DNA of 64,000 bases. Source: Takakia lepidozioides. Lineage: Eukaryota; Plantae; Bryophyta. Below are positions 1,244 through 24,405 of the stretch, piece after piece. The position numbers and the translations under genes were made by a program. The stretch spans positions 20,460,001 to 20,524,000 of the forward strand of contig CM060734.1 of NCBI GenBank assembly GCA_030704615.1, read 5' to 3'. Every line of letters begins with the position of its first letter. The first letter of the stretch is position 1. The notes below the pieces were generated by a model. The model did not search any database, was not told where the DNA came from, and saw only the letters and a list, made by a program, of their open reading frames with translations.

Positions 1244-1968
1244 TGTCGCGCACCTCATTTCGGTAAGCTCCCTTTCAAGTCATAGTTACTCGCTTTGATG
1301 CGCGCGCCTAACTCCCAACCTGGCCGCTGGGCCAACTCGGAGCTTCGGCTGCTCACCGGGACATAACGGTCCCCCTTTTCTCTCCCAACAGACCCTCCAC
1401 CAATTTGGGCCTAGTGGAAATTCCCTCTAGTAGTTGGTAGTCCGGAATAGCTCCCCACTTCTTGGTCGCTTTCCGGCTCGCTCGCTTATTCATTAGTTTT
1501 TGGTCACCAACGGGCTTGCACCTCGGGGTTACTACTCCCTATATATACTTCTGTGACTGTCCGCAGGGGTTCACAAACAACCATGCCATTTTATGGCGAA
1601 CCACCACGAAGACCCTCGATTCCCGGTGATGAGTCGCGGTGAGTCTTGGCCCACCCACCACGGCCCCATTGGACCGTGGTGAGTCCCAAGACTCCCCACG
1701 ACTCCCACCATAAGGTCTCCGCCCCATGGTGAGTCATATGCCACCCCCACTAAGTCCCACTAAGCTACCACCACCCCTTGTGGAGCCACCCCCACCGCAA
1801 CCCGGTGTGCGGGGCTCCACCTAGTGAGCGCCTCCGCCTCCGCCTCCTTGAGTGTCTTGGGCACTCAAGGGTGCTTCAGCCCCCCGTACCTATTGCTGCC
1901 ACCGCCCCCACCTAAGGGGCAACCCATTGCGTCCCGACCCCCTGCCCTCAAAGCAAAGGGCCGCGACA
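1244..1968 (-). repeat. 3' LTR of copy 1
   Basis: TGTCGCG...CGCGACA ends; homologous to the other ~720-bp LTRs; adjacent to a PPT-like AGGGGTGTG on the minus strand. Confidence 0.93.
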
Positions 1969-2855
1969 CACACCCCTATCAACAGGGAGTCGATGTCCTC
2001 ATCGACTTGTCCATTTTGTAGAAACGATCATCCAAGTTGTGGCGTCCCACATCAAGGAGTTTGTTTCCGCACCATGGCAACCCATGGCAAAGAACCAAAC
2101 CCCACACTTGACTCTACTCTCCACTAGCTAGTTCGGCCGACAAGGGTGGAGCCTCTCAAGTTCCACCCAGTACACTCTTCTTGGCCTACTTCAAGGCCAA
2201 GGAACGATCCTCCCCGAGGATCGAATCGCCTTATTGCAACAACATTGTTTGCGACCGCTCTTGATGCCGCTTTTGGCATCACCTTGAGCAAGGGTTCACC
2301 TTGAACCCTTTTTGACTAGGAAGATAACCTTGAACCAACCGTGCGCCCCAATCACTACAATTGGGTCCGCCTTGGAATGCTGACCTGAGGTACGGGAACA
2401 CGCCAAAGCCGCACTACGACTTCGTCCCGAGGCTACACGATTATAGTACGTGAACGAAAGCACGTAGCTTCCGCGTTAGCCCGCACTACAAGGCAACCCC
2501 CTCAGTAGCGCAATTATAGTACGCGCACGTGCCAGGTGCGCACTAGCACGTGAACTCCCAAAGAAGGCGCAAGTTTCTTTGCCCCTTGGATGGGAGTCAC
2601 CCGATTTCGGCTCTGCGCAAACACACGATTAATCCAATTTACCTCTCCCACTTTTGTAAGCTAGCATGCATTCTACACACTAGCCAACCATACCATGCAT
2701 CACCATTCCAAACAAAATATGAGGCACAACATTTGGAAACCATTTCATTTATAACAAAATTTATACAACACAAGTTTTTGCAATCGGATTCTTGAGCTAG
2801 CTGAGCCGGGCTAAGCATGCATTTCCTCCCCCACGATCCAAGGTTGATGTCCCCA

Positions 2856-5800
2856 TCAACGCTTCTCCACTTTTGAGGTCGCCCTTCGAAAGCTGCAACC
2901 GCCTCGGATGCGTTTCCCATTTCTGAGGCACACACCCAAGATGCCTCCACATGATGATAGCCCTTCCATTTCACGAGATACTCCATTTCTTGATTCTTGA
3001 ACCTCCTCGACTTAAGCACTGCCTCCACCTCGTACTCAGGTTCATTTTCATGATCCAACAACATAGGTGGCGGACGCAACACTTGATGCCGATTTGGACG
3101 CGCTTCATCTTTGAAGTAAGGCTTCAAAAGGGAGACGTGGAATACCGGATGCACCTTGCTATTTGCCGGCAGCTCCAATTCATACACATCCTCATTCATA
3201 ACCTTCCGGATGCGAAAGGGTCCCACATACGGAGGTACGAACTTCGGGCTCACTTCCGGAGGTAATCGGAAATTCTTGATGTTCAACCAGACCTCCGTGC
3301 CTGCCTCAAACTTAACTTCCCTCCGCTTCCGATTCGTCTGCCTTTCTTACCGTTTCCTAGCTTTGGCAATGTTGTACTTTGCGAGCTTCAACAAACGCTC
3401 GCGTTCTTCTAGCACCGCTGCTGCTGCTGCTGGTTCCTCAACGTCTTGGGCGGCCCAACTTGTCGGCACCAGAGGTGCTTTTCCATAGACCAATACAAAA
3501 GGGGAAACTCCAATTGCGGAATGTTTTGTGTTATTATAGCAGAACTCTGCCGCATCCAAGTGCTCCACCCAGTCCGATTGGTCTGTCGACACGTAATTCC
3601 GCAGGATCTGCTTCACCACGGAATTCACCCTTTCTGTTTGGCCATCCGTCGTAGGTCGGAAGGTGGTGCTATCTTAAGCCTTGTCCCCATTTTCTTCCAA
3701 AGTGCCCTCCAAAATTTACTTGTAAACTTTGGATCGCGGTCCGAGACAATATCCTTCGGGAGTCCATGATGCTTGAAGACGTGGGCGAAATAAAGTCGCC
3801 CCGTCTCCTGCGCCGTTGCCGTCTCCTTGGTGGGAATGAAATGACCCATTTTACTGAACCTATCCACCACCACCAGGATTGCATCGAATCCTTTTGACAA
3901 CGGCATAGCAGTCATGAAATCCATCGAGACACTTTCCCAAGACCTCTCTAGAATCGGCAAAGGTTGTAACAGTCTCGTTTGTTTTTTGTACTCGCTCCGG
4001 TTTTGTTGGCATGTGGTGCATGACTTGACATACTCCTCGGCCTCCTCCCTCAGTTTGGGCCAGAAATACTCTTTCTTCAAGAGTGCCGCGGTGCGCTTGG
4101 CTCCGCCGTGGCCCGCAAGCGGGCCATCATGGCATTCTCTCAAGAGACCATCTCTGATCCCTCCCTTCGGCACATAGAGACGCCTTTGCTTATACTGGAG
4201 CAGTCCATTTTGCAAGTGGAACTGCGATTTAATCCCCATCCTCAAGTCCCGCATCACGGACTTTGCCATCTCATCCTTCCGGTAAGCCTTCCGGATCTTC
4301 CTTTGGAGTGTCGTCTCGCCCCTTTACACCAACATGAGCTGCTGCTTTCTACTTAAAGCATCGGCCACCACATTGTCCCGTCCCGGTTTGTACTGGATAT
4401 CTACATCGAACACCGCCAAAGTATCTTGCCACCTAAGTTGTTTTGGGGACAACTTAGGCTGCGTGGTAAAATACTTCACCGTGACATTGTCCGTGAATAC
4501 CTTCACCGGGTTGGAACCAACATAGTGGCGCCAAAGCTCAAGGCAATGCACCACCGCCTTCATCTCTTTCTCGTACGTTGGCCACTGTCGCTCCACTTCA
4601 TTCAGTTTCTTACTTTCGTAAGCCACTGGACGTCCATCTTGCATAAGTACACCCCCAATCGCGAAGTCGAACGCATCTGTATGAATCTCAAACGGGCGGT
4701 CGAACTCCGGGGATTTCAAGTCTAGAGCTTCCGCCATCCGCTGCTTCAACTCGGCAAAAGCTTGGCCACAAAAGGTGTTCCATACCCATACCTTGGATTT
4801 ACACAGAAGGTCTGACAGCGGCCCCGCGATCTTGGCAAAATTTCTCACATACTTTCGGTAATAGGAGGCGAGTCCTAGGAAAGATCGCACTCCCGGGACG
4901 GAAGTCGGAGGTTCCCAGTCCAAGATCACCCTCACCTTTCTATCATCCATTTTGATCCCATCCTGTGTAATCACATGCCCTAGGAACTCCACTTTTGTGA
5001 CCCCGAATTCGCACTTTGAAGCTTTGGCGTACAGCTTTCCTTCCGGCAATTTCTGGAACACCCAGTCCAAGATGTCAACGATGTACATGATCACAAAGTC
5101 ATCCAGCCACTCCTGGAACATTAGTGTGCTAAAGGTCGCATGGTTGTTGGTGAGTCCAAAAGGCATCACCAAGAACTCATACGAACCATATCTTGTCCTG
5201 CACGCGGTTTTCTCCTCATCTCCTTCCGCCACTCGGATTTGATGGTAGCCGGAGTGCAAATCGATCCGGCTGAAATACTTCACTCCTGCCAATCGATCAA
5301 AGAGGTTGTCGATTCTTGGCAAAGGGTACCGGTTCTTGATAGTCACCTTATTTAGAGCCCTGTAGTCGACACACATCCGCAACGTCCCATCCTTCTTGTC
5401 TGCTAATAGCACCGGGCTCCGTAAGGTGACTTACTCGGCCGGATGTACCCCTTTGACATTAGAGCCTTGAGCTGCGTCTTCAGCTCGACCAACTCTCTGT
5501 GGCTCAACCGGTAGGGCGCCTTGGCAGGCGGCTCTGATCCCGGTATCACCTCAATCTTGTGGTCAACTCCCCTTCGTGGTGGCAAGCCGCTTGGTAAATC
5601 CTCCGGCATCACATCCTGGTATTTCTCCAAGATCCCTTTGATTTAATCTGGGCTCGGCTCCCTATCGCCTTCTCCCTTCACTTGTCTTACATAAAGCAAA
5701 AACTGGGGCTCGTGTAACTCCTCCACGGCCCACTCCCTTGCTGACAGAAGGTTTATTCGCCCTCCCACGGGGTTGGGCGTTTCCGACACTCGTAAAACTT

Positions 5801-7370
5801 TGCCACCATTCCCACACGATAGTGTGACTACTCTCTTGCGGCCATCTATGACCGCTCCGGATTTGCTCAAAAAGGTCATCCCCAAAATGAGATCCACTCC
5901 ATCGATCTCGCAAATGGTGAAGTTCTCACGTCCCTCCCAACTCCCCAGTTGAAGAGGAACATCGAACGCCAACCTCGTCGCCAATTGTGGTTCTCCTTTG
6001 GCAGAACGCACCTCAATAGAGGCCCCCACGTCACTTGTCGGGAGTCCCAACTTTCGCGCCGCCGCCGGCGTCATGAAGGAGTGCGACGCTCCTGTGTCCA
6101 CCAACAACGACACGTTAGTTCCGGATATTATCCCATCCACGAACAATAACTGACTCCCTTTACGCAGGGCGCCAGTTTCCTGATACAACTCACAAGAATA
6201 GTTGCCTACGTTGCAAGTCCTGGCGACCACCGCTTCCACCAAGCGACTGATGGTATCTTCCGACAGCTCCGTGGTTGCCCGAGTCATGTTCAATTGTCGA
6301 GGTTTCGTGCACTTCTTGGCCATGTGCCCGGGCTCCCCGCAATTGAAACACACTCCATCAAAGGTCGCCTTCTGTCCGCCATAAGCCGCTCCACCCGCTT
6401 TTCCTCTCGAAGCACCGGGTGCCGCCTTGACGTGTGAAGGCCCTCCCTTTGATTTCCACGTGCCATTGTCGCCGCGTAGCCTATCCCACTTCTTTTCCGG
6501 TCGGAAGGAGTCACCTTCCCGCCGGGTCTTCTTGTGGTTCAGCTCCGTACGGCCTTGTCTCTCATCCCTAGGGACATCCGAGAAACATTCAACCCTCTCA
6601 ATTGCCTCGTTCAAAGTCTTGGGTGGCTTCTCCTCCAACTTCCGCCTGGCCCATGGGGCCAGTCCCGCCACAAAGTTGAAGACCATTTCTGGTTCTGCCA
6701 TGTCCGCGACTTCGAGCAACAACACATTGAAAGCCTGGACATACCCCCGAATGTCATCTGTTTGCTTCAAATTCCTCATCTTGTCCTGGGCAAGCCAGGA
6801 CGCGTTGAGGGGCACAAACTGTCTCTTCATCAATTCCTTGAACCCACTCCAATTCAAGGTTTCCGGGCTTGGACCTCGGCCGTGAAGGCGTTTCTGCCAC
6901 CATTGTTGAGCATAGCCCCTCAAATAGGTGGGAGCCACTTCCACCCGATCCTCGTCACTCAACTTGGCCGCCCGGAAGTACTGCTCTAGCTCCAAGAGCC
7001 AGGTGTTGAGTGCCTTCCGATTTCGGACGCCCTCGAAGGTGTCGGGTTCCTTAGGCTTCACCTTAAATTTTGCCTTAGTGGAAGTGGCATTAGCCGCCTT
7101 CAACACGTCTTTCAACGTCCTGCCAAATTGCGCCAACAATCCTTCCCAAAAGGCTGCCGGCATGGGAGGCATCTCTTGGTTTGTCGGAGCTCTCAATGAT
7201 TCTTCGGGCTCCGACTCCTCGGATTCCTCCCGCTCTTGAGCGGCCTCATTTTCGGAAACATGCATCGCTTCCTCAAACGGCTGCCTCGGTGACATGTCGC
7301 CCCCATCGGGCTCACCAGGATCATCATCTTTTGGGCCGTTCCGCTTTCGCTTCGGCTTGCCCGACCCCAT
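2856..7370 (-). pseudogene. gag-pol pseudogene of copy 1
   Basis: ORF pieces 5643-7424 (gag, CCHC knuckle, DTGA protease), 5403-5630, 4324-5412 (RT/RNaseH with small deletions, YIDD changed to YIVD), 3625-4269 and 3347-3628 (integrase), 2639-3286 (chromodomain). Several stops and frameshifts relative to copy 5. Confidence 0.92.
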
Positions 7371-7425
7371 GATGAGGCCAATCCCAAGGACGATCACGTA
7401 CTGAACTCTAAGCTCTGATACCAAG

Positions 7426-8153
7426 TGTCACGCACCTCACTTCGGTAAGCTCCCCTTCAAGTCATAGTTACTCGCTTTGATGCGCGCGCTTGACTCCCAA
7501 CCTGGCCGCCGGGCCAACTTGGAGCTTCGTCTTCTCACCGGGCATAACGGTCCCCCTTTGTTCTCGCAAAGAACCCTCCACCGATTTGGAACCAGCGGGA
7601 ATTCCCTTTGGTAGTTGGCAGTCCGGAACCGCTCCCCACTCTTTGGTCGCTTTCCGGCTCGCTCGCTTACTCACTAGTTTTTGGTCACCAACGGGCTTGC
7701 ACCGTTCTCGGGGTTACTACTCCCCCTATATATACTTCTGTAGCTGTCCGCGGGGGTTTCACAACCAGCCATGCCATTTTATGGCGAACCACCACGAAAA
7801 CCCTCGACTCCCGGTGATGAGTCGCGGTGAGTCTTGGCCCACTCACCACGGCCCCTATGGACCGTGATGAGTCCCAAGACTCCCCACGACTCCCACCACG
7901 AGGTCTCCGCCCCATGGTGAGTCCTATGCCACCCCCACTAAGTCCCGCTAAGCTACCACCACCCCTTGTGGAGCCACCCCCACCGCAACCCGGTGTGCGG
8001 GGCTCCACCTAGTGAGCGCCTCCGCTTCCCTGAGTGCCTTGGGCACTCAAGGGTGCTTCAGCTCCCCCATACCTATCGCTGCCGCTGCCCCCACCACAGG
8101 GGCAGCCCCTCATGTGTCCCGACCCCCTGCCCTCAAGGCAAAGGGCCGCGACA
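7426..8153 (-). repeat. 5' LTR of copy 1
   Basis: Directly adjacent to the PBS; TGTCACG...CGCGACA. Confidence 0.93.
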
Positions 8154-9870
8154 ATACTACCCGCAAGGGAATGGGTAGGCAGAATCAACCATGGCTTCAG
8201 AGTAGGCCATCGCAAACTCACTATCCCATGGATCACCAGCATCTCGCGTGAGCTTAGGTAGACCAAGATATTGGGGAGCTATGCTGGTGTTCGTACAACC
8301 ATGAACAGAGTGGTTTAGCAGAGCTGGTGTTTGTGCATGAAGCACAACGAGTGCATTGACATGCGTAGTGAGGAAAAGCACGACGATAAGAATGCAGCAC
8401 CTGGTGTAGCCTCCATGCACAACAAATAGGGCATCCAGAGACCAGGGTGACTGCAGCCTAAAGTGTCCATTTTTTTGTTGTCACAACACTAGTTTTTCCA
8501 GACATAGAATAGTGGTAAATTATCATACTCCTACATGACAATGCCATCAATAAAAAGGGACTAACATATAGAGGCTCATCTACATATACTTTCACATTTT
8601 TAAATCTCATTATCAAAAACCAGAATCTCTAGATGCTATGGACTTTTAAAAAGTCCATACGGAATTGTCACAGTCCATAAAAAGACGTTACGAATTTTTT
8701 TAATATAGGAGTTAGAAAAAAGCCAAGAAAAGGGACTCTCTCAAACTTGCTTTGGAGAATGAGGAATCTGGAATGAGAACAATCATTCAAAAATATGAAG
8801 TTAAAAAAATAATATGTACTATTTTGAGCCTAAAAAATAGCTATTTTCATATAGTCCTTTATGACTAAATTCTTTTGAAATAACAATTTTTTTTTTCATT
8901 AGAAGCATTCATTCACCATAAATGCACAGTTGAGTATGATCAAATATCAAAAAAACATTTGTGAATTGATATTATCGTAATTTGAAAATCTTGGTTTTAC
9001 CAGTTAATAATAGACGGTCAAGATTGTCAGTTGAAGCAAATCCGATGGCTGAGGATTCGCCACATCCTCCTTTATGTACTCTTTATGTACTCATGATCTG
9101 CCGTTTTTGGTCCATTCTAGTTTGCAATCACCCACCAGCGTTCTCCAGAGCGTGTAGTGACTGAGGCAGTATGTGAGGGGGTAGAGCACTCTGTGACGCC
9201 GAATCCACGGAGGGCCGACTTGCGCTCGAAAGGCTCGAAAGAAAATGACCATAAAACAACCCATAAATGAGCATTAAGGCCTTGAAGAAGCATAGCAAGA
9301 TAGACTGGTTATGAACAGATCCACTGACCAGCCTGAAGAATCTGAGAGGAGGCGCCATAAGATTAAACTTTAAGTCTTGGGGGGAGAATGTAGCTTGTGG
9401 AGGGATGAGAGCGAATACGGTCCGGTCTGTAGATCGTCGAGAGCACCTGGCAGGTTGCTTCAACATAAAAAAGCCAAGGGTGGGGGCCCAGGGTGGTGAC
9501 AGCGGCAGTAAGGGCCTTACATTGATGGGAGCCGAAGGTGTGCAGCAACGACACTCACACACGTTCGGGGCAACAGCTGGTGATGGTGGTGGTCCTGAGC
9601 TCCTCGAGAGGGGATTTGGACGGCAGAGGCCACTCTAAAAGCATCAAAAGGAAGCTTAAAAGAAGCACATTTAAGCATTTGTAAAGGAGATTGTTAGAGC
9701 ACGGGAGAAGACTAGGAGGTCTCATCGCAAAAGCAGACTAGACGGAAGCAGAAGCTATAGTGGCGACCATGTCTAAAGTAGAGGCCGAGGCAAAGTAGCG
9801 AAGCCGCTAGAGGGAGGACGAATTAACACGAAAAGGCTAAAAGTATAGCGGAACCCTTAGAGAAAGTAAT

Positions 9871-10596
9871 TGTTGCGGCCCTTCGTCTTGAGGGCAGGGG
9901 GTCGGGACACAAGAGGGGCTGCCCCTATGGTGGGGGCAGTGGCAACAATAGATACGGGGGCTGAAGCACCCTTGAGTGCCCAAGGCACTCAAGGAGGCGG
10001 AGACGCTCACTAGGTGGAGCCCCGCACACCGGGTTGCGGTGGGAGTGGTTCCACGAGGGGTGGTGGTAGCTTAGTGGGACTTAGTGGGGGTGACATAGGA
10101 CTCACCATGGGGGCGGAGACCTTGTGGTGGGAGTCGTGAGGAGTCTTGGGACTCATCACGGTCCAATGGGGCCGTGGTGGGTGGGCCAAGACTCACCGCG
10201 ACTCATCACCGGGAATCGAGGGTTTTCGTGGTGGTTCGCCATAAAATGACTGGGTTGTTTGTGAAACCCCCGCGGACAGTCACATAAGTATATATATGGA
10301 GTAGTAACCCCGAGAACGGTGCAAGCCCGTTGGTGACCAAAAACTAGTGAATAAGCGTGCGAGCCGGAAAATGACCAAGGTGTGGGGAGCTGTTCCGGAC
10401 TGCCAACAACCAAAGGGAATTTCCACTAGGCCCAAATTGAGAGAGGGTCTTGTGGAGAAGCAAAAGGGGACCGTTATGTCCCGGTGAGCAGCCGAAGCTC
10501 CGAGTTGGCCCGGCGGCCAGGTTGGGAGTTAGGCGCGCGCATCAAAGCGAATAACTATGACTTGAAGGGGAGCTTACCGAAGTGAGGTGCGCGACA
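9871..10596 (+). repeat. 5' LTR of copy 2
   Basis: TGTTGCGG...GCGACA followed by PBS TGGTATCAGAGC at 10599-10610. Confidence 0.93.
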
Positions 10597-10651
10597 CTTG
10601 GTATCAGAGCTTAGAGTTCTGTACGCGATCATCCTTGAGATCGGCCTCATC

Positions 10652-12023
10652 ATGGGGTCGGGCAAGCCAAAGCAAAAGCGGAATGGCCCGAAAGATGATG
10701 ATCCTGGTGAGCCCGATGGGGGCGACGTGTCACCGAAGCGACAATTTGAGGAGGCGATTCATGCTTTTGAAAGCAAGGCTGCTCAAGAACGGGATGAATC
10801 TGGGGAGTCGGAGCCCGAGGACTTCCCGGGGGCTCCGGCAGACCAACAGATGCCTCCCATGCCAGCAGCCTTTTGGGAAGGGTTATTGGCGCAGTTTGGC
10901 GGGACGTTGAAAGACGTGTTGAAGGCGGCTAATGCCACTTCCACTAAGGCAAAGTTTAAGGTGAAGCCTAAGGAACCCGGCACCTTCGAGGGCATCCAAA
11001 ATCGGAAGGCACTCAACAACTGGCTCTTGGAGCTAGAGTAGTACTTTCGGGCGGCCAAGTTGAGTGACGAGGATCGGGTGGAAGTGGCTCCCACCTATTT
11101 GAGGGGCTATGCTCAACAATGGTGGCAGAAACGCATTCACAACCAAGGTCCAAATCCAGAAACCTTAAATTGGAGTGGGTTCAAGGAACTTATGAAAAGA
11201 CAGTTTTTTCCACTCAATGCGTCTTGGCTCGCCCGGGACAAGATGAGGAATTTGAAGCAAACAGATGACATTCGGGGATATGTTCAGGCTTTCAATGTGC
11301 TGTTGCTCGAAGTCGTGGATATGGCGGAACTAGAAATGGTCTTCAACTTTGTGGCGGGACTGGCCCCATGGGCCAGACGGAAGTTGGAGGAGAAGCCACC
11401 TAAGACTTTGAACGAGGCAATTGAAAGGGCTGAATGTTTCTCGGATGTCCCTAAGGGCGAAAAACAAGGCCGTACGGAGCTGAACCACAAGAGGACTCGG
11501 CGGGAGGGTGACTCATTTCGACCGGAAAAGAAGTGGGATAGGCCACGCGGCGACAATGGCACATGGAAATCGAAGGGAGGGCCTTCGCACGTCAAGGCGG
11601 CACCTGGTGCTCCGAAAGGAAAATCAGGTGTGGCGGCTTATGGCGGACAGAAGACAACCTTCGATGAATTGTGCTTTAATTGCAGGGAGCCCGGGCACAT
11701 GGCTAAGAAGTGCGCGAAGCCCCGACAATTGAACATGACTCAGGCAACCACAGAGTTGTCCGAAGATTCCATCAGCCGCTTGGTAGAAGCGGTGGTCGCC
11801 AAGACTTGCAAGGTAGGCAACTACTCTTGTGAGTTGTATCAGGAGACTAACACCTTGTGTAAAGGGAGTCAGTTAATGTTCGTGAATGGGATAATTTCCG
11901 GAACTAACGTGTCGTTGTTGGTGGACACAGGAGCATTGCACTCCTTCATGACACTGGCAACGGCATAAAAGTTGGGGCTCCCGACAAGTGATATGGGGGC
12001 CTCTATTGAGGTGCGTTCTGCCA
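10652..12023 (+). pseudogene. gag-protease portion of copy 2
   Basis: MGSGKPK... gag, zinc knuckle [18 protein letters not shown] protease; in-frame stops at ~11039 and ~11966; interrupted by the MULE at 12024. Confidence 0.92.
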
Positions 12024-12220
12024 CAACGATGCAACGGCGTGAGCGTTGCGCGTGAGCGCGCGAGCGTACGCTCACGCAGGAGTGACGTGGCGTGAGCGTA
12101 CGCTCACGCCAGCTGACGTGGCGTGAGCCTGCACACACGCTGACGTGGCGTGAGCGTCATGTCAGCATGCTGATGTGGCGGTAAATGATGACATGGCACT
12201 GTCCGTCATCTGCCACGTCA
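12024..12220. repeat. Left TIR and subterminal repeats of the MULE
   Basis: Repeated GTGAGCG/CGCTCAC; TGACGTGGCGTGAGC at 12083, 12114 and 12141; palindrome GTGAGCGTACGCTCAC. Confidence 0.85.
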
Positions 12221-12673
12221 CCATTAACATGCGCCGCCTATAACCGTGGATGGTCCTATGACCGTGGAATTAATGCAGGGAATCTTGCCTAAATAGAATC
12301 AAGACGAGCATTGAGGCTACAATTGCAGCATCCAACATTGTGCAATTACAAATGCTTGTTTCACTTTTACAATTACGAGGACGACAAAATATCCTCACAA
12401 AGTGTGCGCCATAAAGGCTGCCACGGGAAGACCTTCCTCCCTCCTCAAATAACAATGAGAGTTAGGATCATCTTCAAAAGATGATTGTAGTGCATAGCGA
12501 CAGCAAGACATGTAGACTTCGAACGGTGCAATGACAAATGTGCACTACCTAAAAGTTGTCACTCAGAGCTCACTCCGTATAGTTGGAGGCCATATCATTG
12601 CACAGCCGACGAATTGATGTGAATTACACATTTCAAATCATGGTCATCCACATACCACATTACATAGTTCATG

Positions 12674-15600
12674 CTACCCATGTGTTGTATCCCGCTGCAA
12701 AAGAGTATCGACCTCGTTGAAACTCATAGTGGCCTGGTGAATGAAGTTGTCACGTTTGGGATCGCAAACCATCCTCCTCAAAAATATGAAATACAAATGT
12801 TTGCAGGGTATGAATTTACCTCTCTTGCCCAAACTGGTTGATAGCATATTCACAAAATCAGGACATGTGCAATTGGGGAAATTGGAAACCGTGATGTCGT
12901 AGGTCCTGTCATGAACAGCAGATGTGGAAGTGATGATTGTGAATACCCGACCATATCCTGGATCGGGTACTTCCGTGGTGCTTCCAACACGAGCTTGGAG
13001 CATTCTTGCGGACTCCACTTTGCCAAAGTGTTCAGCGGTTGGAGGGAAACGCCGAACGAGCTTTCCATCTCGTTTGGTTGGCCACAAGTCAGGATTTGCC
13101 GGGGGGACCCGGGAGGACGCAGAAGTAGTAGCACATGCATGGAGTTGGGGTTGTCTCGCAAGGGAAAAACCTGCCTCCTCCAGCATTTCAATCTCCTGAA
13201 AGCTGAGATGTGTTCCCACCTTCACGGGCCAAACGGTTGGAGGAGATGGCTTCATCACTACGGAAGGACGCACAGTTCCATGCACACATCTGGCACAATC
13301 ATCTGCGCAGAACCAGAACTTGTGGTTCTTGGCTTCTGGTTGACCGTATGGACGCATCAAGCCCGTGAAAGTCGGAGCAGGAGTTCGGGCACCACCTCTG
13401 GATATAGATGAAGTGCACTTCTCGAAATTAGTTGCCCTGATCGCTGTACATTTCACACGAGACCCTACACTTGTGCGTTCTATGTGCCAAACGTGGTCGG
13501 GGCATGCGGACTCAAGCACATCAAGGGGGTTGTTTCTCTCCTGCACCATTTCAGTGGCACTGTTTGATGCTGGAGCTTGCCGTCGTGTTGGAGGTTCCTC
13601 CACAATGGAGGTTCCGGACATGGAGCTGTCATGCAGGGGAACACGAGGCTTCGAGAAGTTATCACGGTCTGCCCTGTGGGAATCTGAATCCGAACCAGGT
13701 GGAGTGTTCAATTTCCTCTTACAGGAGCCGAATCTCTCCTCCCCTTCAAGATGTGGAACTCTAGAAACAAGTGGCGTTCCCTGGGCATACATGCTCACCG
13801 CCCGTGCTATCTTGATTGGATCCCCAGATCTGTTTGCAGCACGCAACATCAACTCCCATTTGTCCGGACCCTTGCCACCAACCCCACCTCGTAAGAAATC
13901 ACGGTATCGGGTTTGTTGTTGCAAGGCACGTATCAAATCATCTGTTGTTGCCACATACAAATCCCGACCTCGTTTCCCAGACTGCTGCAACCATGCGTTG
14001 TGCACAGTTTCTGCCAAATTGCAAGATGGCATGTCCGCCATTTCCTCAATGGACATGTTCTGCAAAGAGGATAACCACACTTCAGAACAGTGCACAGGAA
14101 ACAACATAAAGAAAGCAATGAGTCAAAAATATGGAAAGCAAATGTATGAATAAAGCATGAAATAGAAGCCTCGTACCATTGTCATGGCTGCTCCCCACTG
14201 TCTATACCGGAAGTGCCAAAACGCCAGCCAATCTTCCAATGCTCTCATACTCTCAAGTGATGCAGCTCCAGAAGAGAACCACCAGGCACGAATTGTCTGG
14301 AACAAAGTGTCCGCCTCCTTCATTGTTCTAGCATCTTTGTACTCTTTGCACAATTTACGGTGCTGAGTCTGCATCTCTGGTTTGATGTCCGACTTTGTAT
14401 GTTTTTCCAGAGATTGTGTCCAATGGAATAGACATGTACGCTCTCTTCCTGGCATAGGCACTTTTGGGTCGCCCGATCCGAAGACAATACGAACAGCATT
14501 GAAATTTGCTTGAGCACTATCCGCCATGAAACCTGCGAAATTTGGAGATGGGCCCATGGCAGCCCATGACACGTATCAGGGAATTCCACATGAGCTTCTG
14601 GGATTCCGTATCCTCGGATTGCATGTCACAAACTGCAATTGTCATAACTCGTTGGTACACTGGATCGTAGACATGACAAGCCATTGTCGTCCAATCCTTC
14701 ACTCGTTTCACATGATCAAACATAAGAAAACAGTTCTGCAAGTCCCCAGTCTTCTGCATCCGCTTCACGAGGCTAACCCCACTGCCCTCCCCAACAGTCG
14801 ACATTTTGAAAAGAAAAACTTTGATGGCACCTTGACCTGGGAATACATTGTCCTGGATGTAATCGTACTTGCTCACTCGTTTCAATTCCAAAATATTGTC
14901 TATGTAGCCTCTGATCCCAGAGCCCATTCTCAATGCATTGATCTGATGCCGAATGTTAGGTGAACTTAAAGTGGAGAAATGATCCATGACCAGGTCCAAT
15001 GCTGCACCGTCAAGTTTAGTCCCCACAGAATCTCCTTCACTCAAAATATGGCTTTCCAAGAAGGACTTGCTTGCGCCAAGAGCAATTGCAGATGTTGTTG
15101 CGGATGGGTTTCTCCCGAACTCCTGTTTGATCAACCTCGATACTGTCTCAACACTCTCCCTGTAATCCCCCTTCGAGACAGGATGGTTATGGAATCCAAA
15201 ATGCACACAAGCTCTCGTCATTGTATTCAAACGGTGGACAACATAGTACATTCTTGCTCCGCAGAGCGCCAAGCAGGATGGCACAAGTTTGCAGAATTTG
15301 CAGACGAAAGTGTTTGCCGGTGGAGGGGCAGTCCCAGGCTGAAATGGATTTCCGCCAGACCCTCCCATTCGCTTTGATTATGAACCCCAGACTGAAGAAA
15401 GTGTCTGCAATTCAAATTATCACACCTAAGGTGTCCATTGCAAACTGTCCTCCTGAAAACAAGCTTGTCATCATTCTGAATATTGGATGTTTTTGTTCTG
15501 CACCACGGGTGCCCGTCGTGTTTCTTGTCCATTCCATGCATCATGATTGTTACACCTCCAACTCGCGGAGGAGGAGGCAGCTCGAATAGGATATCGCCAT

Positions 15601-16125
15601 CAAAAGTCTCCGGCAAGAACTTCACAGGCACCTGCTTCAAAGATTCCCAATCAATTCCCCGCAACTCACTTTTGAATCCAGCCATTCCTCCCATCGCCCG
15701 CAATTTTGGAATGACACTACAAATCTCTTCTTCATCAGCTTCTCCAACCACAGTAGGAAGGACTGGATTTGGAATTTCACTTATGTCATCATCGGAAGAA
15801 TCCGAAAGCTCAACGATTGGAGTGGAGGACGTCTGTTCTTTTTTCACCACCACCTCCCTCTTGTCTTCAACGACCGAAGCAGCAGTCCCGGGCGTCACAT
15901 ATGACCCAAGGGACTTTCGCCGAGGCTCTCCAAGTACTCTGTATCGACCAGGACGCACTCTCCACTGGCTGATATGAGCCGTCTCATCACGGTGGAGCCA
16001 TTCTGCAGCTGAAAACGGGTAGCCAAGACATGTTCTAGAACAATTGCAAATCCATTGTCAAGGACTTCCTGGGAGAACGGCACTGGTTTGTCGTCAGAGA
16101 AGAACTCCGCTTCAGAGGAAGCCAT
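12674..16125 (-). pseudogene. MULE-type DDE transposase with N-terminal GCM/WRKY-like Zn domain and C-terminal SWIM finger (frameshifted)
   Basis: Overlapping ORFs 15895-16125, 15227-15958, 14517-15368 and 14123-14572 join through ~3 frameshifts. A GT-AG intron at 14060-14176 joins them in frame to 12674-14059. Motifs: CNGHLRC...CKFC...C...HFGFHNHP (GCM-like), FDHVK (D1), FMADSAQA (D2), CLFHW (CxxH), CNLAETVHN (E), CTCPDF...CKHL (SWIM). Confidence 0.82.
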
Positions 16126-16977
16126 CTTCCTTCCTCGCGTACGTTTGTACCTTGCTATCGTAGATCTAGTGTAAATCGTTTTACTGATGTCTCCAGAACA
16201 CAGTTGAAGAATGAGCAGAGAATATGGCGGAGGAAGCTCAGATAACGACTGTGCATATTATGTTATTCTTCCCAGATATGCAGCCGTCCATTTTAATTAC
16301 TTTTCTTGTGGGCCCAGTGGTCAGAGTATCCCTAGGGGCAGTGTCGGAAGCTGTAAAACCGTTAACCAGAACCTCATCAATAAACCCAAAAACAAAGCCG
16401 ACTTCCTGGAAGCATGCCACAGGATCTGAGAATGGGATTGCAGATTAAGTAAATGTATCTATATACTACTACCAATGATCATGCGCATCTGGAAAGTTCC
16501 AAATGTGAAACGAATGTGGGGTTTGGCTAACAAGGATGACCGTGTATGATATTCCAAAATTTGTCATCAAACTCTCGTTCATTTACATTTATTTGTGTAA
16601 GACTGCGCCAAAATTTCTGGGATTCGCTGTTATTTTAAATATTGAAACCGTTCTAATAAAGAACACGCCGTTTTTTTTGGGCGACACACGTCAGACATCC
16701 ATAACTGAATACGAACAGATGTACACCAATTGCTGGCATGTGCACTAATAAGGGAACGACTATGTGTAACGGTCACGCGGAGGGAATCCGATGCTTCTAG
16801 AGACACGCAAGAACGCAGGCAATCCCGCAAGAAATCGGGAGTCACTGCGTTTTTCTACTTTTCGCGCTTAGAGGGAGAGTGGTAGTCAAGCTGGAGAGGG
16901 TTCCTTCTAGAATACGAAAGAGAAGAAAGTCTCTTTATTTTACTTCCCTTAGAGAGAGACGCAGAGCAAGAGAGAAA
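16126..16977. promoter_or_regulatory. Putative bidirectional promoter region between the transposase and cargo gene
   Basis: ~850 bp separating head-to-head start codons (16125 minus, 16978 plus); GA-rich leader before 16978. Positional inference only. Confidence 0.4.
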
Positions 16978-17350
16978 ATGACGAGGCGTCGTTTGTTGGA
17001 GAACACAGGGCCAAGGCAGCAGGTGAACGCGGAGACTGATTCACAAGAGCAGACGGAGACTGAGGCAGCGGCTGTGACACAGTCGGCGATAAGAGTGCGC
17101 CAGCCTGTGAGATGTGGAGGCAGAGATGATTCGCAAGGACACTGAAGGAGGTGGAAGCACGCGGAACGCCGAACCGGGAGAAGGTCCAGAAACCCTAGCG
17201 CAGACAGAAATTCCAGCAGATGTGAGAGGGAAGAGGAAAGCTGCAGAAGGGGATCAAATTTCAAAACCTAAGAAGGTGCCAGTAAGTTTTATCTAATTAC
17301 ATTTCATTGTTGAAGATATGCGTAGAGATTGAGTGGAATGTCCCAAACAG

Positions 17351-17847
17351 GGATTGTCGCTACCGACCATCACAAAGGTGATTTGCTTTACTCCTCTGCG
17401 AAGGGTTTACCGCACAATGAGTTGGTGACTATCGTACAGTCATTCACTGGTGTTCAGATCATACAGTCTGTCTGATTGCCTTTCAAGGAGTCCTTCCTCT
17501 TCCCTTCTTTAGCAGGAACTACTGAATTGCGAGCGTCGTTAACGCCATTCGATTCTCCTCATGAGATTTATGTACCTATGTGTTTGAAGAGAGAGTCTGC
17601 ACTTACTATCCGCCCTAAACTACACTGAATGTCGTTGCCGCCAATCAGTTGCACATATATGTCATTACACAACACCGATCCGGCAGGTCGTTATCTTTTG
17701 TGATTGTCGTTAACGCCGTTCGCTATCGCTCTCGCTTTTGTTTTGAATACGGCAGTATCAGCTTTGCTTGTGTAGATTGTGCTGAATTTTTCACACCATT
17801 CATGGTGAGTTTCCTTGAGACAGAGTGATGGTCGTTACCGCCATTCA
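17351..17847. repeat. Degenerate array of the 22-bp palindrome in intron 1 of the cargo gene
   Basis: Copies at 17351 (15/22 match), 17530 (16/22), 17626 (19/22), 17701 (17/22) and 17826 (17/22) versus TGAATGTCGTTGACGACATTCA. Confidence 0.65.
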
Positions 17848-19683
17848 CTATTTGCAAATCACTCAGTCAGAACTGAATGGCATCGTGCAGAAAACTGTGA
17901 GGTCGAAGCCTACAGGATCAGAGGGGAAAGGATCTGGAGATGGGGACGAGTCCGCAAAAAGCTCAGAGAATACAGATGAAGCAGATGAATCTGAAGTGCA
18001 CTACCTTGACAAGGTGAAAGAACTCATGTCATTCCAGAAGGTAAACTCTCAGGAGGTTATAAGGGACATGCTCGTATCTGGAGGGCGTCTGGACATACCT
18101 CTGTGCCGGATGATATCAATGCCTGTTGTGCGTCCACCTCTTTCCCATGACATAACAAAATTGGAGAGTGATTTTGTGCATGGATATAGACTTGGTGCAC
18201 AAGTTTTTTATGTGTCACTGACGGATATAAATGGGAAAGCACATTAGTGTCTCCAGAGATCAGTGATAACTGGGATGAGTGCTGGAAAGATGCCAATGAG
18301 GAGTTCGAGCTGGGCCTCATGATGGGAAAGAACACCCAGCAATTCTGCAACCACATGTTCTACGTCTGGGACGGCAACCACCGATTGCTGGCATGGATGG
18401 GATACATTCAGAAACACCATGCGAAAGACAAAGACAAGCATGTTGCTGTGGAGGCAATGGTTTTGGATCCTGGAAACGACATCGCTAGGCTTCTTACAGC
18501 TATGCACGACGTGAACAAGTAAGTCATCCAGGAGATTTCATTCCCTCTGTAGTGTCTTATTAATCCTCAAAAAACAGTGTTAAGGAATGCAATGTTTCCA
18601 ATGTTTTTGCAGATCGACAGAGAAATCGCATGTGACAACAAGCTTGGTTCACACACTATTCCGAATTCAGAGGATTGGTCTGATGAAGCTGGATGATTTT
18701 CGGACAGTACTACCACCCAATATCATCAAGAAGTGCGAAACAGGAAGAGCTGCAGGCACTTGGTATTCTTTGACACGAGAGGCGTTTCGTGAGTACATGT
18801 ATTCGAATACATGTTTGTAGTCCCTTCGGAGCTAATCACTACTTGAATGAATGCAGCAAGAACTGGCAGAGGCAGCTGAGAAGGGAAAATCCGAATATTA
18901 CCGCACTACACCAGAAGAACTAAGGACATCAAAGGGTGTGGAAGCTGCAATAAAGAAGGAGTTTGAAATGCGAAGAACCAAATTGATGTCCGCCTTCGGA
19001 AAGCAGCTTAGAATAGTAGATCCTGGACTTGGTCCTGAGTTCCTTCAGCAGATCAAAACACACTATGACAAGCATGTGCATCCGGAGATGCAGCAGGAGA
19101 AATTGCACCGGCTGGCCATATCGATGGTCGACCCACAAACAAAAATAAGGTGGCTGGAGATATGGAACTCAGATCAAACAGTAAAGGACTTGAATCAGTT
19201 CCCAAAGAGCACCATACAGCCTGGCACAAAGGTGGAAGGAATCAGTGATTTGGTGTTTGATAACTGGCTCCACAAGGCTACATTTTGGAGTCAGGTGTGT
19301 ATTCAAACATGTTGTTTCTTCTCTTCAAGTATGTGATGAGTATCTTTTTGCAATTCTGACAAATATACTATTTGCAGCTCGAAAAGCGCGCCGTCATTGT
19401 GCTGGATCAGACTTTGAAGGACCTGAACATTTCGATTGTTTCCCCTCCCCAAATGTCATTGGAGGCATACATAAGGAAGTGGAGAGGTCTCACCTGGAGA
19501 TACTGTTTTTTCCGGGAGTTCTCCAAAGATGGTAACATTTTACGGTCCAACGACTTTGACAGTCAGGTTGGAGGAGAGTGGGCCATGATGCGAGTTGTGT
19601 ACAGGTGCAATGTCATACTTGAAACTCTACTGTTTTTTGGGAAAAAATGTGGCTTCATATGGATTGCAATCTTAGATCCAGAT

Positions 19684-20404
19684 TGAATGTCGTTGACGAC
19701 ATTCACTTCTTTGTCTGAGTCATTCTTAAGCGAGTATATGAATTCACCTGGTTAGGATCTAAGGGTGCAATTATAGTGTCCCTGATTAGAATTGATAATG
19801 TCCTTGAATGGCGTTGACGACATTCACATACGGAGTTGTTGAGAGGTCCTCAGAGTTATGTAAATTTTTGTAATGTCCATAGAGGTTACAGTGAGGGTTC
19901 CTCACTTCATTTGCTGAATGTCAATGCAGACATTCAGTTGTTCTGCATTGTTTTTGCCTCTTGCGAGGAATCTGGAGGCTTGATAAGCTCTGTTATGAGA
20001 AATCCAAAGTGAATGTCGTTGACGACATTCACTGCTGTGTCTGTATTATTCAACAGCGACAAATTGAATTTACATGGATTGGGAGCTAAGTAATTGGTTT
20101 CTTTTTGTATTTTTGTGAATGGCGTTGACGCCATTCACATACAGTGATGTTGTGAGGTCCTCAGTGATAGGTTCGTTATGAATGTGCATTGAGTTTTCCT
20201 GGAGGGTTCCTTACTCGATTTTTTGATTTCCATCCTGTGATTTTGCTTCATTTAAGTAATAATTAGGCTTCATTAGTGAATGTCGTTGACGACATTCACT
20301 TCTATGTCTGTGTCATTCTAAACGATAATTTGCATTCACCTGGATTAGGGTTGTATTTACAGTATCATTGAATGGAATGTTTTGAATGGCGTTGACGACA
20401 TTCA
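19684..20404. repeat. Array of seven interspaced 22-bp palindromes TGAATG(T/G)CGT-TG-ACG(A/C)CATTCA in intron 19605-20544
   Basis: Starts at 19684, 19805, 19915 (variant TGAATGTC-AATGCA-GACATTCA), 20010, 20116, 20277 and 20383; start-to-start spacing 121, 110, 95, 106, 161 and 106 bp. Confidence 0.92.
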
Positions 20405-23329
20405 TATCTGGAGCAGTAGTGTGGTCCTGAAAGGTCCTTGGAGCAGTTCTCAGAGCCATTTCAATCTATGTTTTTTCATTCTGTTCTACTTGCATCTTAC
20501 TCACTGAGCGCTTTTGTGGGTTGGGATTTATCTCCTTTTTTCAGGTACACGAAATATGTGCTTATGGAAGGAAATCACCTGAGCGGAATTCCCGACTATC
20601 TTGACATGTGGTCGGACCCTGCAAACGATCCAACCATGTATACTGCAGGGATATTGAAGGACTGGAGTCCTTCTCACTTCAGAGACTGTGGGTGGTACCT
20701 TGACTGCCCACCTGAGCACACGACCTTTCAAGAACAGCATATGAAATACTTGAACAATAACGCTGAGATGCTGGCGCCTTTGACTGACGAAGAGTATCAA
20801 CGAAACATAGCAACATTGGCTGCCAAGGAGCCTGATGCTCAGGGAACGCCGCAGAAGGGAAAGAAGGCGGGCCGCAAACCAAAAGACAAGGCTGTTGATG
20901 TCATAGCCATCTCACCAGCAAAGCCAAAGGACAAAGACAAGTCCAAAGAGAAGGAAAAGGACAAGGGGAAGGAGAATGAAAAGGAGATGGAGAGTGGGCA
21001 GGACTTTACTGCTGGAAGATATACCCGCACTCTTCAGTGCGTGTTCGATGCCAAGCCACACCCTTCCCGTTCTGATTCAGCAGGAGAGATGAAAATTGTT
21101 AATGAGGGTTGGCTTTCGATGATGCAGAGTCGAAAGAGAGGATACACTGGGGTGTCATCCCCTACCTGGGACAATATAATCTCATTCCTCAATCTGGTGA
21201 GAATTCCAGTTTCTTTCCTTTTTCTCTGAAAGTTTCGTTGGCAGTATTTCAGTCTCGTTCTTTGAAAACAATCTTGCCATCGTTCTTATAAAAAACATGT
21301 CTGTTGCAGGTGAGCACAGGTCCCACCTTCGTGTGCGGTGTGTAGAAAACTTATGCGGCCGACATTGTCATTCTCGACATCCCGGATGGCCAGGCTGTGC
21401 CAGAAGTTCTTCCAAAGGGCAAGACGCCAGGCTGGAACAAATTCGAGAACAACTACTGGAGTTGGGTGTTCGGGTTCTGTAACAACTTCCTCTCTGATGC
21501 AGGGACACTTCTGCTTTTTCAGTAATGTGACAATGATAGTCGTCGGGCATTGACATCATACCTCAAGTCTTCAGGGTTTGAAGTTTTGCGCACATGGAAT
21601 TGTGTGAACAGCCTCTACCTTGTGAAAGGGGGTTTCCCTAGTCAGCTGGTATGTCGTCTCCCTTCTGCTTGTGCTTTGATCATGAGTTTCAATTTTCTCT
21701 GCAGCTCCACTCTAGTAGAATGTGTTATGATCGACACCGATCATCACCGATTCATGATTTTTTTGTGTCTGAGTTCTGAATAGCCGATGTACACACTTCC
21801 ACTATAGATTGTGTTTACCACACTAACTTGTTATCTTTGGCAGACGAGGATGTTCGAGGCGATCTGCCTGCGGAGGATTCGCACCTCAAAGACACCATCC
21901 TCCATCCGCAGCTTTGAGATTTCTGACCAGGGTTGTTTCGTCAACCCCCCCTATGAGCCCCATGTCGATGACATTTTGTACAACTTCATGCAGTCCAGTC
22001 AGACTCTGAAGAGACCAGATGGCACTCCCTGGAGAGGTGCAAAGGAAAAGTCCCCAGCGTTCATGCAAATACTGCTGGAGTCATGCAGCCACCGCTCTGC
22101 ACGGGTGGTCGATCTTTCTGTGTCCACAGGTTGTTTTTTCCCTTCCGAATTGGTTTTCTTTCAACAGTTTCATCTGCTTAAATCCCCCCCTCCAAACTGT
22201 TCATGTTCTCCTGTCTGGTGCAGGAGCAACTTACCATGCATGCAAGGCAGGCGGAAGAAGCCTTTTTGGCATGGAGGGTGATTCTGACCTCTACAACACA
22301 GTGCTCCCCCCCCTTTTGTCTAGCTCCACTTCAGGCACACAGATTGATCGGATTCAAATTCGAAATGATGACGATCCCGAAGATAAGCAGGTCGACAACG
22401 ACTTTTCATGTGAGTAAGTGCTAAACCCTCTTTGGGAGTCATACTCAATTTCTCGATAACATCAAAGTTACAGTAATAACTTTTTCAGGCTGTCTTTCAG
22501 GAAAGGCAGCGGTGGATCTTCAGGAGATACAGTCATTTCTGGCGAGTCTGTTTTCGACAGCCCCCTTTCCAATTTTCTGCTCCCTGTTTATGCCGAAGCA
22601 ATGGCACTTCACGCGGCCGAGTCCCTATCCCCTGACTTTTTAGTGGCCAGCCGTAGGTGTATCCAGCGTGGATCCGGTGTTCTAAAATACTTAGACTTAG
22701 ATGCAGAGGAAGCGGGGATACATTGTACTGACTCTGAGTCAGACTGAACTGTATTCTTTTAATATTCATTTTCATATTATCTGGAAAACGTTGAATCCCC
22801 TTCCTCCACCGTAGTTGTTCCTTTAGAACAAATAATAATCACAGAATCAACTTTCATTTAAATTGCAATATGTATGAATCCATCTCACAAACCTCCCTGA
22901 CTCTTCTCATATCCATTGTGCATTCATCTACACTGTATTCATGCGTGCTCCATTCATGAATTATTTCCTTTGTACAACATCCATTGTACATTCATCCTCT
23001 GTACTCTTTAATCCACCCCACAAACCTTCCACACTCATTTCATATACGTTGTGCATTCGTCAAAAGATTTGGTCATGCATCTTCCTGTCATGAATTTTTG
23101 TCATTGCTCAACATCCATTATACATTCATCCATTTTACTCTTATCCATCCCTCATTCATCCATCTACATTCATTTTTCACACTCATCCATCTGTTTATCA
23201 TCCAACTATACATTCATCCATCCTTTATTCAATGCCTTTTATTATGTCGTCCAGCTTGTTTCCGCGGTAAAGGGTGCCAATCCGCGGGAATACACTCCAC
23301 TTCTTTCTGGGCGCGTGGTGACGCGGCCT

Positions 23330-23418
23330 TCACGTGTGATGACGTGGAGTGAGCCCCGTGACGTGGCGTGAGCGCGCTCACGCGCTCACGTTACCAGGCT
23401 CACGCCGAGGCATCCCTG
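23330..23418. repeat. Right subterminal repeats and TIR of the MULE
   Basis: TGACGTGG(A/C)GTGAGC at 23340 and 23359; GTGAGCGCGCTCAC palindrome; terminal GCTCACGCCGAGGCATCCCTG. Confidence 0.85.
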
Positions 23419-24405
23419 GTTCTGCCAAAGAAGAACCACAATTGGCGGGGAGTTGGGAGGGACGTGAGAACTTCACCATTTGCGAGATCGATGGAGTGGA
23501 TCTCATTTTGGGGATGACCTTTTTGAGCAAATCAGGAGCGGTCATAGATGGCCGCAAGAGAGTAATCACGCTACCGTGTGGGAATGGTGGCGAAGTTTTA
23601 CGAGTTTCGAAAACGCCCAACCCAGTGTCGTGGCCCTTTGCCTTGAGGGCAGGGGGTCGGGACACAGAAGGGGCTGCCTCTGTGGTGGGGGCAGTGGCAG
23701 CGATAGGTATGGGGGGCTGAAGCACCCTTGAGTGCCCAAAGCACTCAAGGAGGCGGAGACGCTCACTAGGTGGAGCCCCGCACACCGGGTTGCGGTGGGG
23801 GTGGCTCCACAAGGGGTGGTGGTAGCTTAGCGGGACTTAGTGGGGGTGGCATAGGACTCACCCTGGGGCGGAGACCTCGTGGTGGGAGTCGTGGGGAGTC
23901 TTGGGACTCATCACGGTCCATAGGGGCCGTGGTGAGTGGGCCAAGACTCACCGCGACTCATCACCGGGAGTCGAGGGTGTTCGTGGTGGTTCGCCATAAA
24001 ATGGCATGGTTGTTTGTGAAACCCCCGCGGACAGCTACAGAAGTATATATAGGGAGTAGTAACCCCGAGAACGGTGCAAGCCCGTTGGTGACCAAAACCT
24101 AGTGAGTAAGCGAGCGAGCCGGAAAGCGACCAAAGAGTGGGGAGCTGTTCCGGACTGCCAACTACCAAAGGGAATTCCGCTGGTTCTAAATCATTGGAGG
24201 GTTCTTTGGGAGATCAAGGGGGGACCGTTATGTCCCGGTGAGCAGCCAAAGCTCCAAGTTGGCCGGGCGGCCAGGTTGGGAGTTAGGCGCGCGCATCAAG
24301 CGAGTAACTATGACTTGAGGGGGGAGCTTACCGAAGTGAGGTGCGCGACACTTGGTATCAGAGCTTAGAGTTTAATACGCGATCGTCCTTGGAATTGGCC
24401 TCATC

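Follow-up and report, generated by a model that had tools for sequence, protein, structure and literature searches.

According to PMC10770331, ParB forms dimers that recognize clusters of palindromes, are closed by CTP and then slide, and VirB thereby counters silencing. In the VANDAL/VANC system of Arabidopsis, the motifs that VANC proteins bind are family-specific and amplified as tandem repeats in introns, and these proteins remove methylation (passages of PMC5735166). Petroll et al. (bioRxiv 10.1101/2025.02.11.637652) described ParB-domain accessory genes, PAG3, with adjacent inverted-repeat arrays in red-algal Plavaka elements. They propose that PAG3 binds and modifies its own element, and report homologous accessory genes in Chondrus Mutator elements. 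In Ectocarpus, the element Sola1-1_Ec32 encodes an accessory protein in which ParB is fused to a methyltransferase (PMC12477816). The concept is thus already in print, as proposals, for red-algal Plavaka PAG3 and Ectocarpus Sola1-1. In their available passages, these two 2025 algal genome papers propose self-binding by a ParB accessory protein, name no target sequence and report no test. The main text of PMC12477816 does not contain the string "palindrom" and describes no target site for Sola1-1, and the passages of bioRxiv 10.1101/2025.02.11.637652 describe no family-specific motif divergence for PAG3.

Here, we analyzed a window of 64,000 nucleotides from Takakia lepidozioides, in which a palindrome array lies in an intron of an accessory gene of a Mutator-type transposon (Table 1). 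This locus is like PAG3 in that a DNA transposon carries a ParB-domain accessory gene and tandem inverted-repeat arrays. In the PAG3 case, however, the fusion partner of ParB is a 2OG oxygenase, the methylase has a gene of its own and the arrays are adjacent to the gene in an EnSpm/Plavaka element, whereas here a ParB domain and an amino-methyltransferase fold are predicted in one gene and the arrays are intronic in a plant-type MULE. Sola1-1 is from a brown alga and belongs to the Sola-1 superfamily, in contrast to the plant-type MULE described here. The likeness to VANDAL/VANC consists in a MULE accessory protein and family-specific motifs, which in Arabidopsis accumulate in introns and other non-coding parts. 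The VANC motifs are non-palindromic and 8-9 bp long, whereas the sites here are 22-bp palindromes; and demethylation has been demonstrated for VANC, whereas anti-silencing is here suggested by analogy. Neither the accessory gene (gene 2) nor its homologues matched any VANC-type Pfam family. With ParB-parS, KorB-OB and VirB-virS, of which VirB has an anti-silencing role, the locus shares a predicted ParB/Srx fold and clustered palindromic sites that are putatively cognate. It differs from these ParB-type CTP clamps in being a eukaryotic transposon with a 22-bp rather than a 16-bp site, without ParA and with a C-terminal methyltransferase fold. Phage fusions of ParB with an N6/N4-methyltransferase (Iyer et al., PMC4738411) have the same domain order, but the catalytic motif is altered here. 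The passages of Iyer et al. 2016 (PMC4738411) and of the Marchantia 4mC preprint contain no such system. Marchantia MpDN4MT1 and the bdelloid N4CMT were considered as counterparts and rejected: both possess SPPY, and the texts searched mention ParB for neither of them. The literature that we searched contained neither a case from land plants or from introns nor a series of family-specific motifs.

Table 1. Coordinates of the transposon, its genes and the palindromes in the window (position 1 is the first nucleotide of the window).
Feature	Position	Strand	Remarks
Mutator-type DNA transposon, 11.4 kb	12024..23418	.	9-bp target duplication 12015-12023 / 23419-23427, imperfect terminal inverted repeats
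Left terminus, 7 copies of subterminal 8-bp motif	12024..12160	.	motif unrelated to intron palindrome
Gene 1, MULE-like transposase with C-terminal SWIM finger	12674..16125	-	ORFs overlap and lie in different frames
Gene 2, intron-containing accessory gene	16978..22417	+	ParB/Srx-like N-terminal domain, beta-class amino-methyltransferase-like C-terminal domain (predicted)
Degenerate four-palindrome cluster	17530..17847	.	inferred intron 1, about 17282-17866
Exon for ParB/Srx-like domain	17867..18521	+	GxxRxxA-type motif within WDGNHRLLA from 18367
Array-holding intron (intron 4), 940 bp	19605..20544	+	phase-2 GT..AG
Palindrome A1	19684..19705	.	T/T half-sites, perfect arms
Palindrome B1	19805..19826	.	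G/T half-sites, one unpaired position
Variant site	19915..19936	.	8-bp arms retained, both CpGs lost
Palindrome A2	20010..20031	.	
Palindrome B2	20116..20137	.	G/G half-sites, perfect arms
Palindrome A3	20277..20298	.	
Palindrome B3	20383..20404	.	G/T half-sites
Methyltransferase-like domain exons	21345..22417	+	motif IV position reads DIPD (21376-21387)
Right terminus, 3 copies of left-terminus subterminal motif	23340..23418		

The duplication of 9 bp falls within the 8-11 bp given for MULE target sites in the passages of PMC6446971, and together with the terminal inverted repeats it agrees with a Mutator/MULE element. The host site is a gypsy-type LTR retroelement, because the flanks match neighbouring stretches of the LTR family of the window. 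This family (about 6.9 kb with LTRs of about 730 bp) is present as many nested copies, which are 88-99% alike (1244-12023 and 23419-64000), and most of its LTRs bear a 25-bp hairpin with 11-bp arms (for example, at 9970, 28488 and 34694). Another element may account for a tandem repeat of 65 bp (53732-53923) and the GC-rich palindromes close to it (53578 and 54246; region 53578-54270), which lie outside the LTR family. The termini of the transposon are made of repeated GC-rich palindromic motifs, which are candidate transposase sites, and the subterminal motif is absent from the interior of the element. The stretch that separates gene 2 from the right terminus contains a tandem duplication of 134 bp and an AT-rich repeat of 15 bp (22877-23221). 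In this copy, gene 1 is broken by frameshifts. Its SWIM finger was detected with E 7e-4 and 19.4 bits (the Pfam cut-off is 19.6), and the frameshifted pieces gave no Pfam MULE match. By eye, gene 1 contains a D..D..CxxH..E pattern, which we take to be a transposase motif. The CpG observed/expected ratio of the element is 0.68, and those of two LTR elements are 0.83 and 0.85. Because the ratio of the element is not above those of the LTR elements, the sequence gives no hint that the element is protected from methylation.

The original prediction placed six near-identical palindromes and one variant in an intron. Their coordinates and sequences were as described, the intronic location was borne out, and the count holds for intron 4 of the Takakia element; however, four degenerate copies in intron 1 had been missed. 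The start-to-start distances of the seven 22-bp palindromes are 121, 110, 95, 106, 161 and 106 bp. A higher-order repeat of about 270-330 bp had been proposed as the source of the array, and the units are indeed 326 and 267 bp. With a degenerate palindrome pattern at no more than two mismatches, 13 strand-matches were obtained, as compared with none in 100 shuffles. Six copies differ from the A-type palindrome by 0-2 nt and all six retain both CpGs, as had been predicted. These six palindromes contain 12 of the 20 CpGs of the array intron, and the CpG observed/expected ratio of its other 793 bp is 0.29. The site at 19915 keeps its 8-bp arms, as predicted, and in addition has lost both CpGs; its counterpart in the second unit has decayed. 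Thus, not every site is maintained. A MITE or satellite origin of the array was rejected within the window, since the array is not bounded by termini and was not reported by Tandem Repeats Finder. The exact palindrome motif was absent from the viral contigs searched.

The spacers have diverged far more than the palindromes. A-type spacers are 67-75% alike (z 6.5-10.3) and the B1 and B2 spacers are 72% alike (z 11.8), whereas the B3 spacer matches B1 and B2 weakly (z 2.7-2.8). In none of the nine A-versus-B comparisons can the spacers be aligned (z -1.6 to 1.4), yet the corresponding palindromes differ by 1-2 nt. We aligned three higher-order units, the comparison that the original prediction had called for, and conservation of the palindromes beyond the spacers was confirmed: 43 of 44 palindrome columns are invariant, but only 88 of the 209 spacer columns without gaps are (Fisher p 2e-13). 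Two such windows never arose in 100,000 permutations of the columns, a test that ignores autocorrelation.

The further cluster lies in the inferred intron 1, where palindromes with 3-6 mismatches start at 17530, 17626, 17701 and 17826. Four sites were observed there at no more than six mismatches, and the mean of 500 shuffles was 0.016 with a maximum of 2. No clear homology links the flanks of these copies with the spacers of intron 4 (the best of 68 tests gave z 3.7). At 17783-17802 there may be a fifth site, in shortened form; many other copies of the gene have one extra base there. In the other 62,476 bp of the window there are no palindrome copies, so the array is confined to the transposon within the window, as had been expected.

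To compare half-sites, ten CpG-bearing sites were folded on their axis; these sites were picked by their likeness to the consensus, which favours conservation overall but not at particular positions. All 20 half-sites agree at positions 2, 3, 6, 8 and 9, the CpG included. At position 7, 12 of them have T and 8 have G, and the pairings T/T, G/T, G/G and T/G all occur. In the intron-1 copies these five bases are retained although 3-4 arm positions are unpaired. Because both half-site variants occur in all four pairings, it is the half-site sequence, and not base pairing, that is conserved. The compensatory change at 20116 therefore does not support selection on dyad symmetry, which had been claimed. 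That this change is a paired one was overstated: the T7G change is common to B1, B2 and B3, only one of these being symmetric, and 20116 alone carries the matching second change, so that a single further change, and not two paired changes, has to be explained. Template switching between inverted repeats produces such single symmetrising changes (abstracts of PMC8604942 and PMC3820800). Selection on spacing between the sites finds no support either: the distances range from 95 to 161 bp here and are about 33, 75, 127 and 213-266 bp in the related loci described below.

Gene 2, which holds both clusters, is defective in this copy (a frameshift near 18235, a loss of 32 bp near 18802 and a stop near 21523), and other copies differ from it at all three defects. 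Many sequence variants of the gene exist: 13,222 contigs of one run, possibly the source sample, and 464 contigs of a run from another study align with it at varied identities. In a presumed-RNA run, two contigs bridge two downstream GT..AG introns. In this run there is zero cover over 19705-20452, and the depth of 2.95 in the preceding bin fits 46 unaligned letters of a contig that starts at 20542; we do not count this pattern as evidence of splicing.

The named homologues of gene 2 are all from two Adiantum ferns, and they match the window at the N-terminal domain (E 1e-12) and at the C-terminal domain (E 1e-4 to 2e-3). In these two genomes the gene is multicopy and annotated only as hypothetical (P0003-P0021). 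Both fold models were made from fern homologues, which are about 25-37% identical to the window exons, and not from the broken gene of the window. Alignment A7, which was folded, has a few misplaced pieces; A5 and A8, in which short exon pieces are misplaced, were left out of folding. The model of 531 residues of P0005 has a mean pLDDT of 66.8, with values mostly of 80-96 in the first domain. Its four best rows in VIA all belong to the ParB/Srx family (KorB, Z 7.4; PadC, 7.3; pNOB8 ParB, 6.6; SerK, 6.5), and the next row, with Z 5.7, is unrelated. The KorB match has an rmsd of 3.0 over 92 aligned residues. The top ten Foldseek rows are ParB, Noc, KorB or sulfiredoxin, none of them at E 0.001 or below. 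The N-terminal domain modelled for the fern homologues is consistent, at moderate strength and with Z under 8, with a ParB/Srx fold. As compared with bacterial ParB-type clamps, about 40 extra residues are found inside the domain. GxxRxxA is the nucleotide-binding motif of ParB-type CTP clamps. It is present in six of the nine alignment rows that cover it, reads GxxRxxS in one and is degenerate in two. The middle of the P0005 model is helical, with pLDDT 35-60 over long stretches; no helix-turn-helix, the element with which ParB-type clamps read their palindrome, was located in this poorly modelled region and no known fold was assigned to it.

For the C-terminal domain, the model of 286 residues of P0011 gave M.BceJIV (Z 16.5), MboIIa (16.1) and CcrM (14.9); the M.BceJIV match has an rmsd of 3.6 over 204 aligned residues, and the Foldseek E value for a methyltransferase fold was 6e-7. 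The model strongly indicates that this domain of the fern homologue has a beta-class N4C/N6A methyltransferase fold, motif order included. In the Adiantum proteins the SAM-binding motif is apparently intact (ELGxGTG), but motif IV is altered. In seven of seven alignment rows this motif reads D-[ILF]-P-[TEDI] instead of (S/D/N)PP(Y/F/W). The bdelloid N4CMT requires the Ser and Tyr of its catalytic SPPY (passages of PMC8885841). Because motif IV has the form D-[ILF]-P-x in all seven rows, methylation of the element by the gene 2 protein appears doubtful. Pfam returned no ParB and no significant methyltransferase for the window pieces and the homologues (best, N6_N4_Mtase, E 0.021), PDB sequence searches gave nothing at E 0.001, and no relatives of gene 2 were found at the sequence level in viral or GTDB contigs. 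PHROGs assigned one fern protein to DNA methyltransferase (E 7.5e-4), and there was a weak phage match over 66 residues (E 0.06). The nearest named Atlas clusters are phage proteins with ParB_N and N6_N4_Mtase (feature scores 0.80-0.82), which we take as a lead only.

One metagenome scan yielded 243 candidate stretches, among which nine homologous loci were recognized; their ParB segments are 30-49% identical. No transposase was found on these nine short contigs. Three of the nine, all from one metagenome assembly, bear their own, different arrays of 20-24-bp palindromes. A motif-blind detector returned repeated palindrome families for L001 (4), L003 (5), L005 (5) and the Takakia element (7), against a background of at most 1 in 10 shuffles of each locus and 1 in each of three control regions. 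The L001, L003 and L005 arrays are all upstream of the ParB exon, where the Takakia element has its degenerate cluster. The array-bearing loci are three of the four that have at least 600 bp upstream of this exon. Among the six loci without an array, five hold only 3-303 bp upstream; L007, of the most divergent subfamily, has none in 879 bp upstream or in its downstream introns. L002, in which all downstream introns are present, also has none. The intron that holds the Takakia array is found at the same position and phase in L002, L003 and L007, where it measures 100, 90 and 90 bp, respectively. L009 was excluded because it is truncated and the repeats downstream in it are part of other sequence: its incomplete ParB exon is followed by unrelated DNA (L009:2221-3400), which contains three or four dispersed 170-bp repeats with a 21-bp conserved word.

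The four motifs differ from one another at 11-19 of 22 positions. At no more than five mismatches, each motif finds its own locus, and only two stray single matches occur elsewhere. The ParB domains of the four motif-bearing loci are 36-53% identical. A TCG...CGA core is common to all four motifs, in register as TCG-N4-CGA in three and as TCG-N2-CGA in one. The four sites of L001 are identical (0 of 22 positions mismatched), whereas the next 50 bp are alike at 29-30 positions between distinct units; in L005, one 12-bp core is kept in two unrelated repeat units. Homologous genes carry different palindromes of the same design. Other palindromes were seen beside these arrays: in L003, one nearly perfect palindrome of 24 bp, which is unrelated, immediately downstream of the array (L003:236-259), a 24-bp palindrome with a different centre between the two L005 arrays (L005:2115-2140) and a MITE-like hairpin with 52-bp arms at the contig end (L005:3710-3816).

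Several explanations of the sites were weighed. The array clearly grew by tandem duplication and, in the aligned units, conservation tapers gradually into the palindrome flanks; both features would be expected of a neutral repeat seeded by a palindrome, in which hairpin-prone DNA duplicates and the palindromes, unlike the drifting spacers, are held alike by template switching or gene conversion. Template switching does homogenise inverted-repeat arms (abstracts of PMC8604942 and PMC3820800), and the decay of one site would also fit. However, homogenisation of arms keeps symmetry and not a fixed sequence, whereas here the sequence is kept and symmetry is not. Moreover, one and the same site stands between spacers that cannot be aligned and is found again in another intron; in three distant homologues, too, this gene bears arrays with the TCG core; and CpGs are retained in an otherwise CpG-poor intron. 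We consider a neutral repeat quite unlikely. Conservation of sequence rather than pairing also bears on the idea that the palindromes act as RNA hairpins in the intron, as splicing elements or a small-RNA source, or as DNA cruciforms. Perfect arms of 10-12 bp are found in four of the seven palindromes, and the RNA of the intron folds more stably than shuffled versions of it (20 shuffles, z -6.1), but this score follows trivially from repeated palindromes. Particular bases are preserved even though G/T and T/G combinations leave positions unpaired and arms contain 3-4 mismatches; the motifs of L001 and L005 lack a loop; and the intron has no Rfam match at E 1 or below. Therefore, a role as hairpin or cruciform hardly seems probable.

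Two other proteins might bind the palindromes. The element's own transposase (gene 1) could use them as its own activator, and would likewise give family-specific motifs: the AtMu1 transposase binds cognate motifs and hypomethylates its family (passages of bioRxiv 10.64898/2026.08.24.746577). In the same passages, however, the AtMu1 peaks are at the termini, whereas here the termini have a different motif and no 22-bp site, and the palindromes lie 5.5-8.4 kb from the left end of the element, inside the ParB-type gene. Binding by the transposase is accordingly very unlikely. A dimeric transcription or chromatin factor of the host, for which the palindromes would be an intronic enhancer, could account for the TCG half-core in all four motifs, since a single host factor family might read it. 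Against this, the outer arms are family-specific and strictly kept, as the four L001 copies demonstrate, and the window has no copies outside the element. Moreover, a site of 20-24 bp is long for a plant transcription factor. We regard a host factor as highly improbable.

The sites are selectively conserved, occur within the window only inside this element and lie in introns of a gene that is predicted to be of the ParB-methyltransferase type. The original prediction favoured binding sites for a dimeric protein; this is still the best reading, and a candidate protein is now found in the array-bearing gene itself. The anatomy combines the clustered sites of ParB with the intronic repeats of VANC. 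On this basis, the palindromes are probably parS-like binding or loading sites for the element's own dimeric, predicted ParB-plus-methyltransferase protein, and a VANC-like escape from silencing is a possible outcome, to which we give a somewhat less than even chance. Binding by the element's own protein is supported by the second cluster in another intron, the identical sites between unalignable spacers and the different motif at the termini; the moderate ParB match, the six of nine loci without an array, the decayed site, the altered motif IV and the CpG ratio of the element count against it. By analogy with ParB-parS and VirB-virS, each subunit would read one 10-bp half-site (invariant xGAxxGxCG). 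The dimer would then close with a nucleotide, probably CTP, and spread along the element, again by analogy. Tandem amplification in introns would add loading sites without burdening the coding sequence. Because the protein and its motif would diverge in concert, each family would address only its own copies. Because it is without an S/DPPY motif, the methyltransferase-like domain may serve as a module that binds or shields DNA, or may be an atypical enzyme.

The array is real, and neither a land-plant Mutator case nor family-specific motifs were found in print. In its fullest form, the proposal is that a land-plant Mutator uses a phage-derived ParB CTP clamp with a pseudo-methyltransferase, which loads at family-specific, parS-like palindromes in introns, spreads and blocks CG methylation by the host. 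As a whole, this proposal is tentative and on balance unlikely. If it is true, a ParB-parS switch would work on eukaryotic chromatin, and a second, independent anti-silencing system would exist beside VANC, with a readable protein-motif code across families. The four concrete motif-protein pairs, which have a shared core and different arms, make a cross-binding experiment straightforward. With the present locus, which has homologues in ferns, the ParB-accessory system is extended to Mutator elements of the plant type. Should loading prove to depend on CTP, a clamp mechanism known from bacteria would operate in eukaryotic nuclei and may provide orthogonal tools for chromatin targeting.
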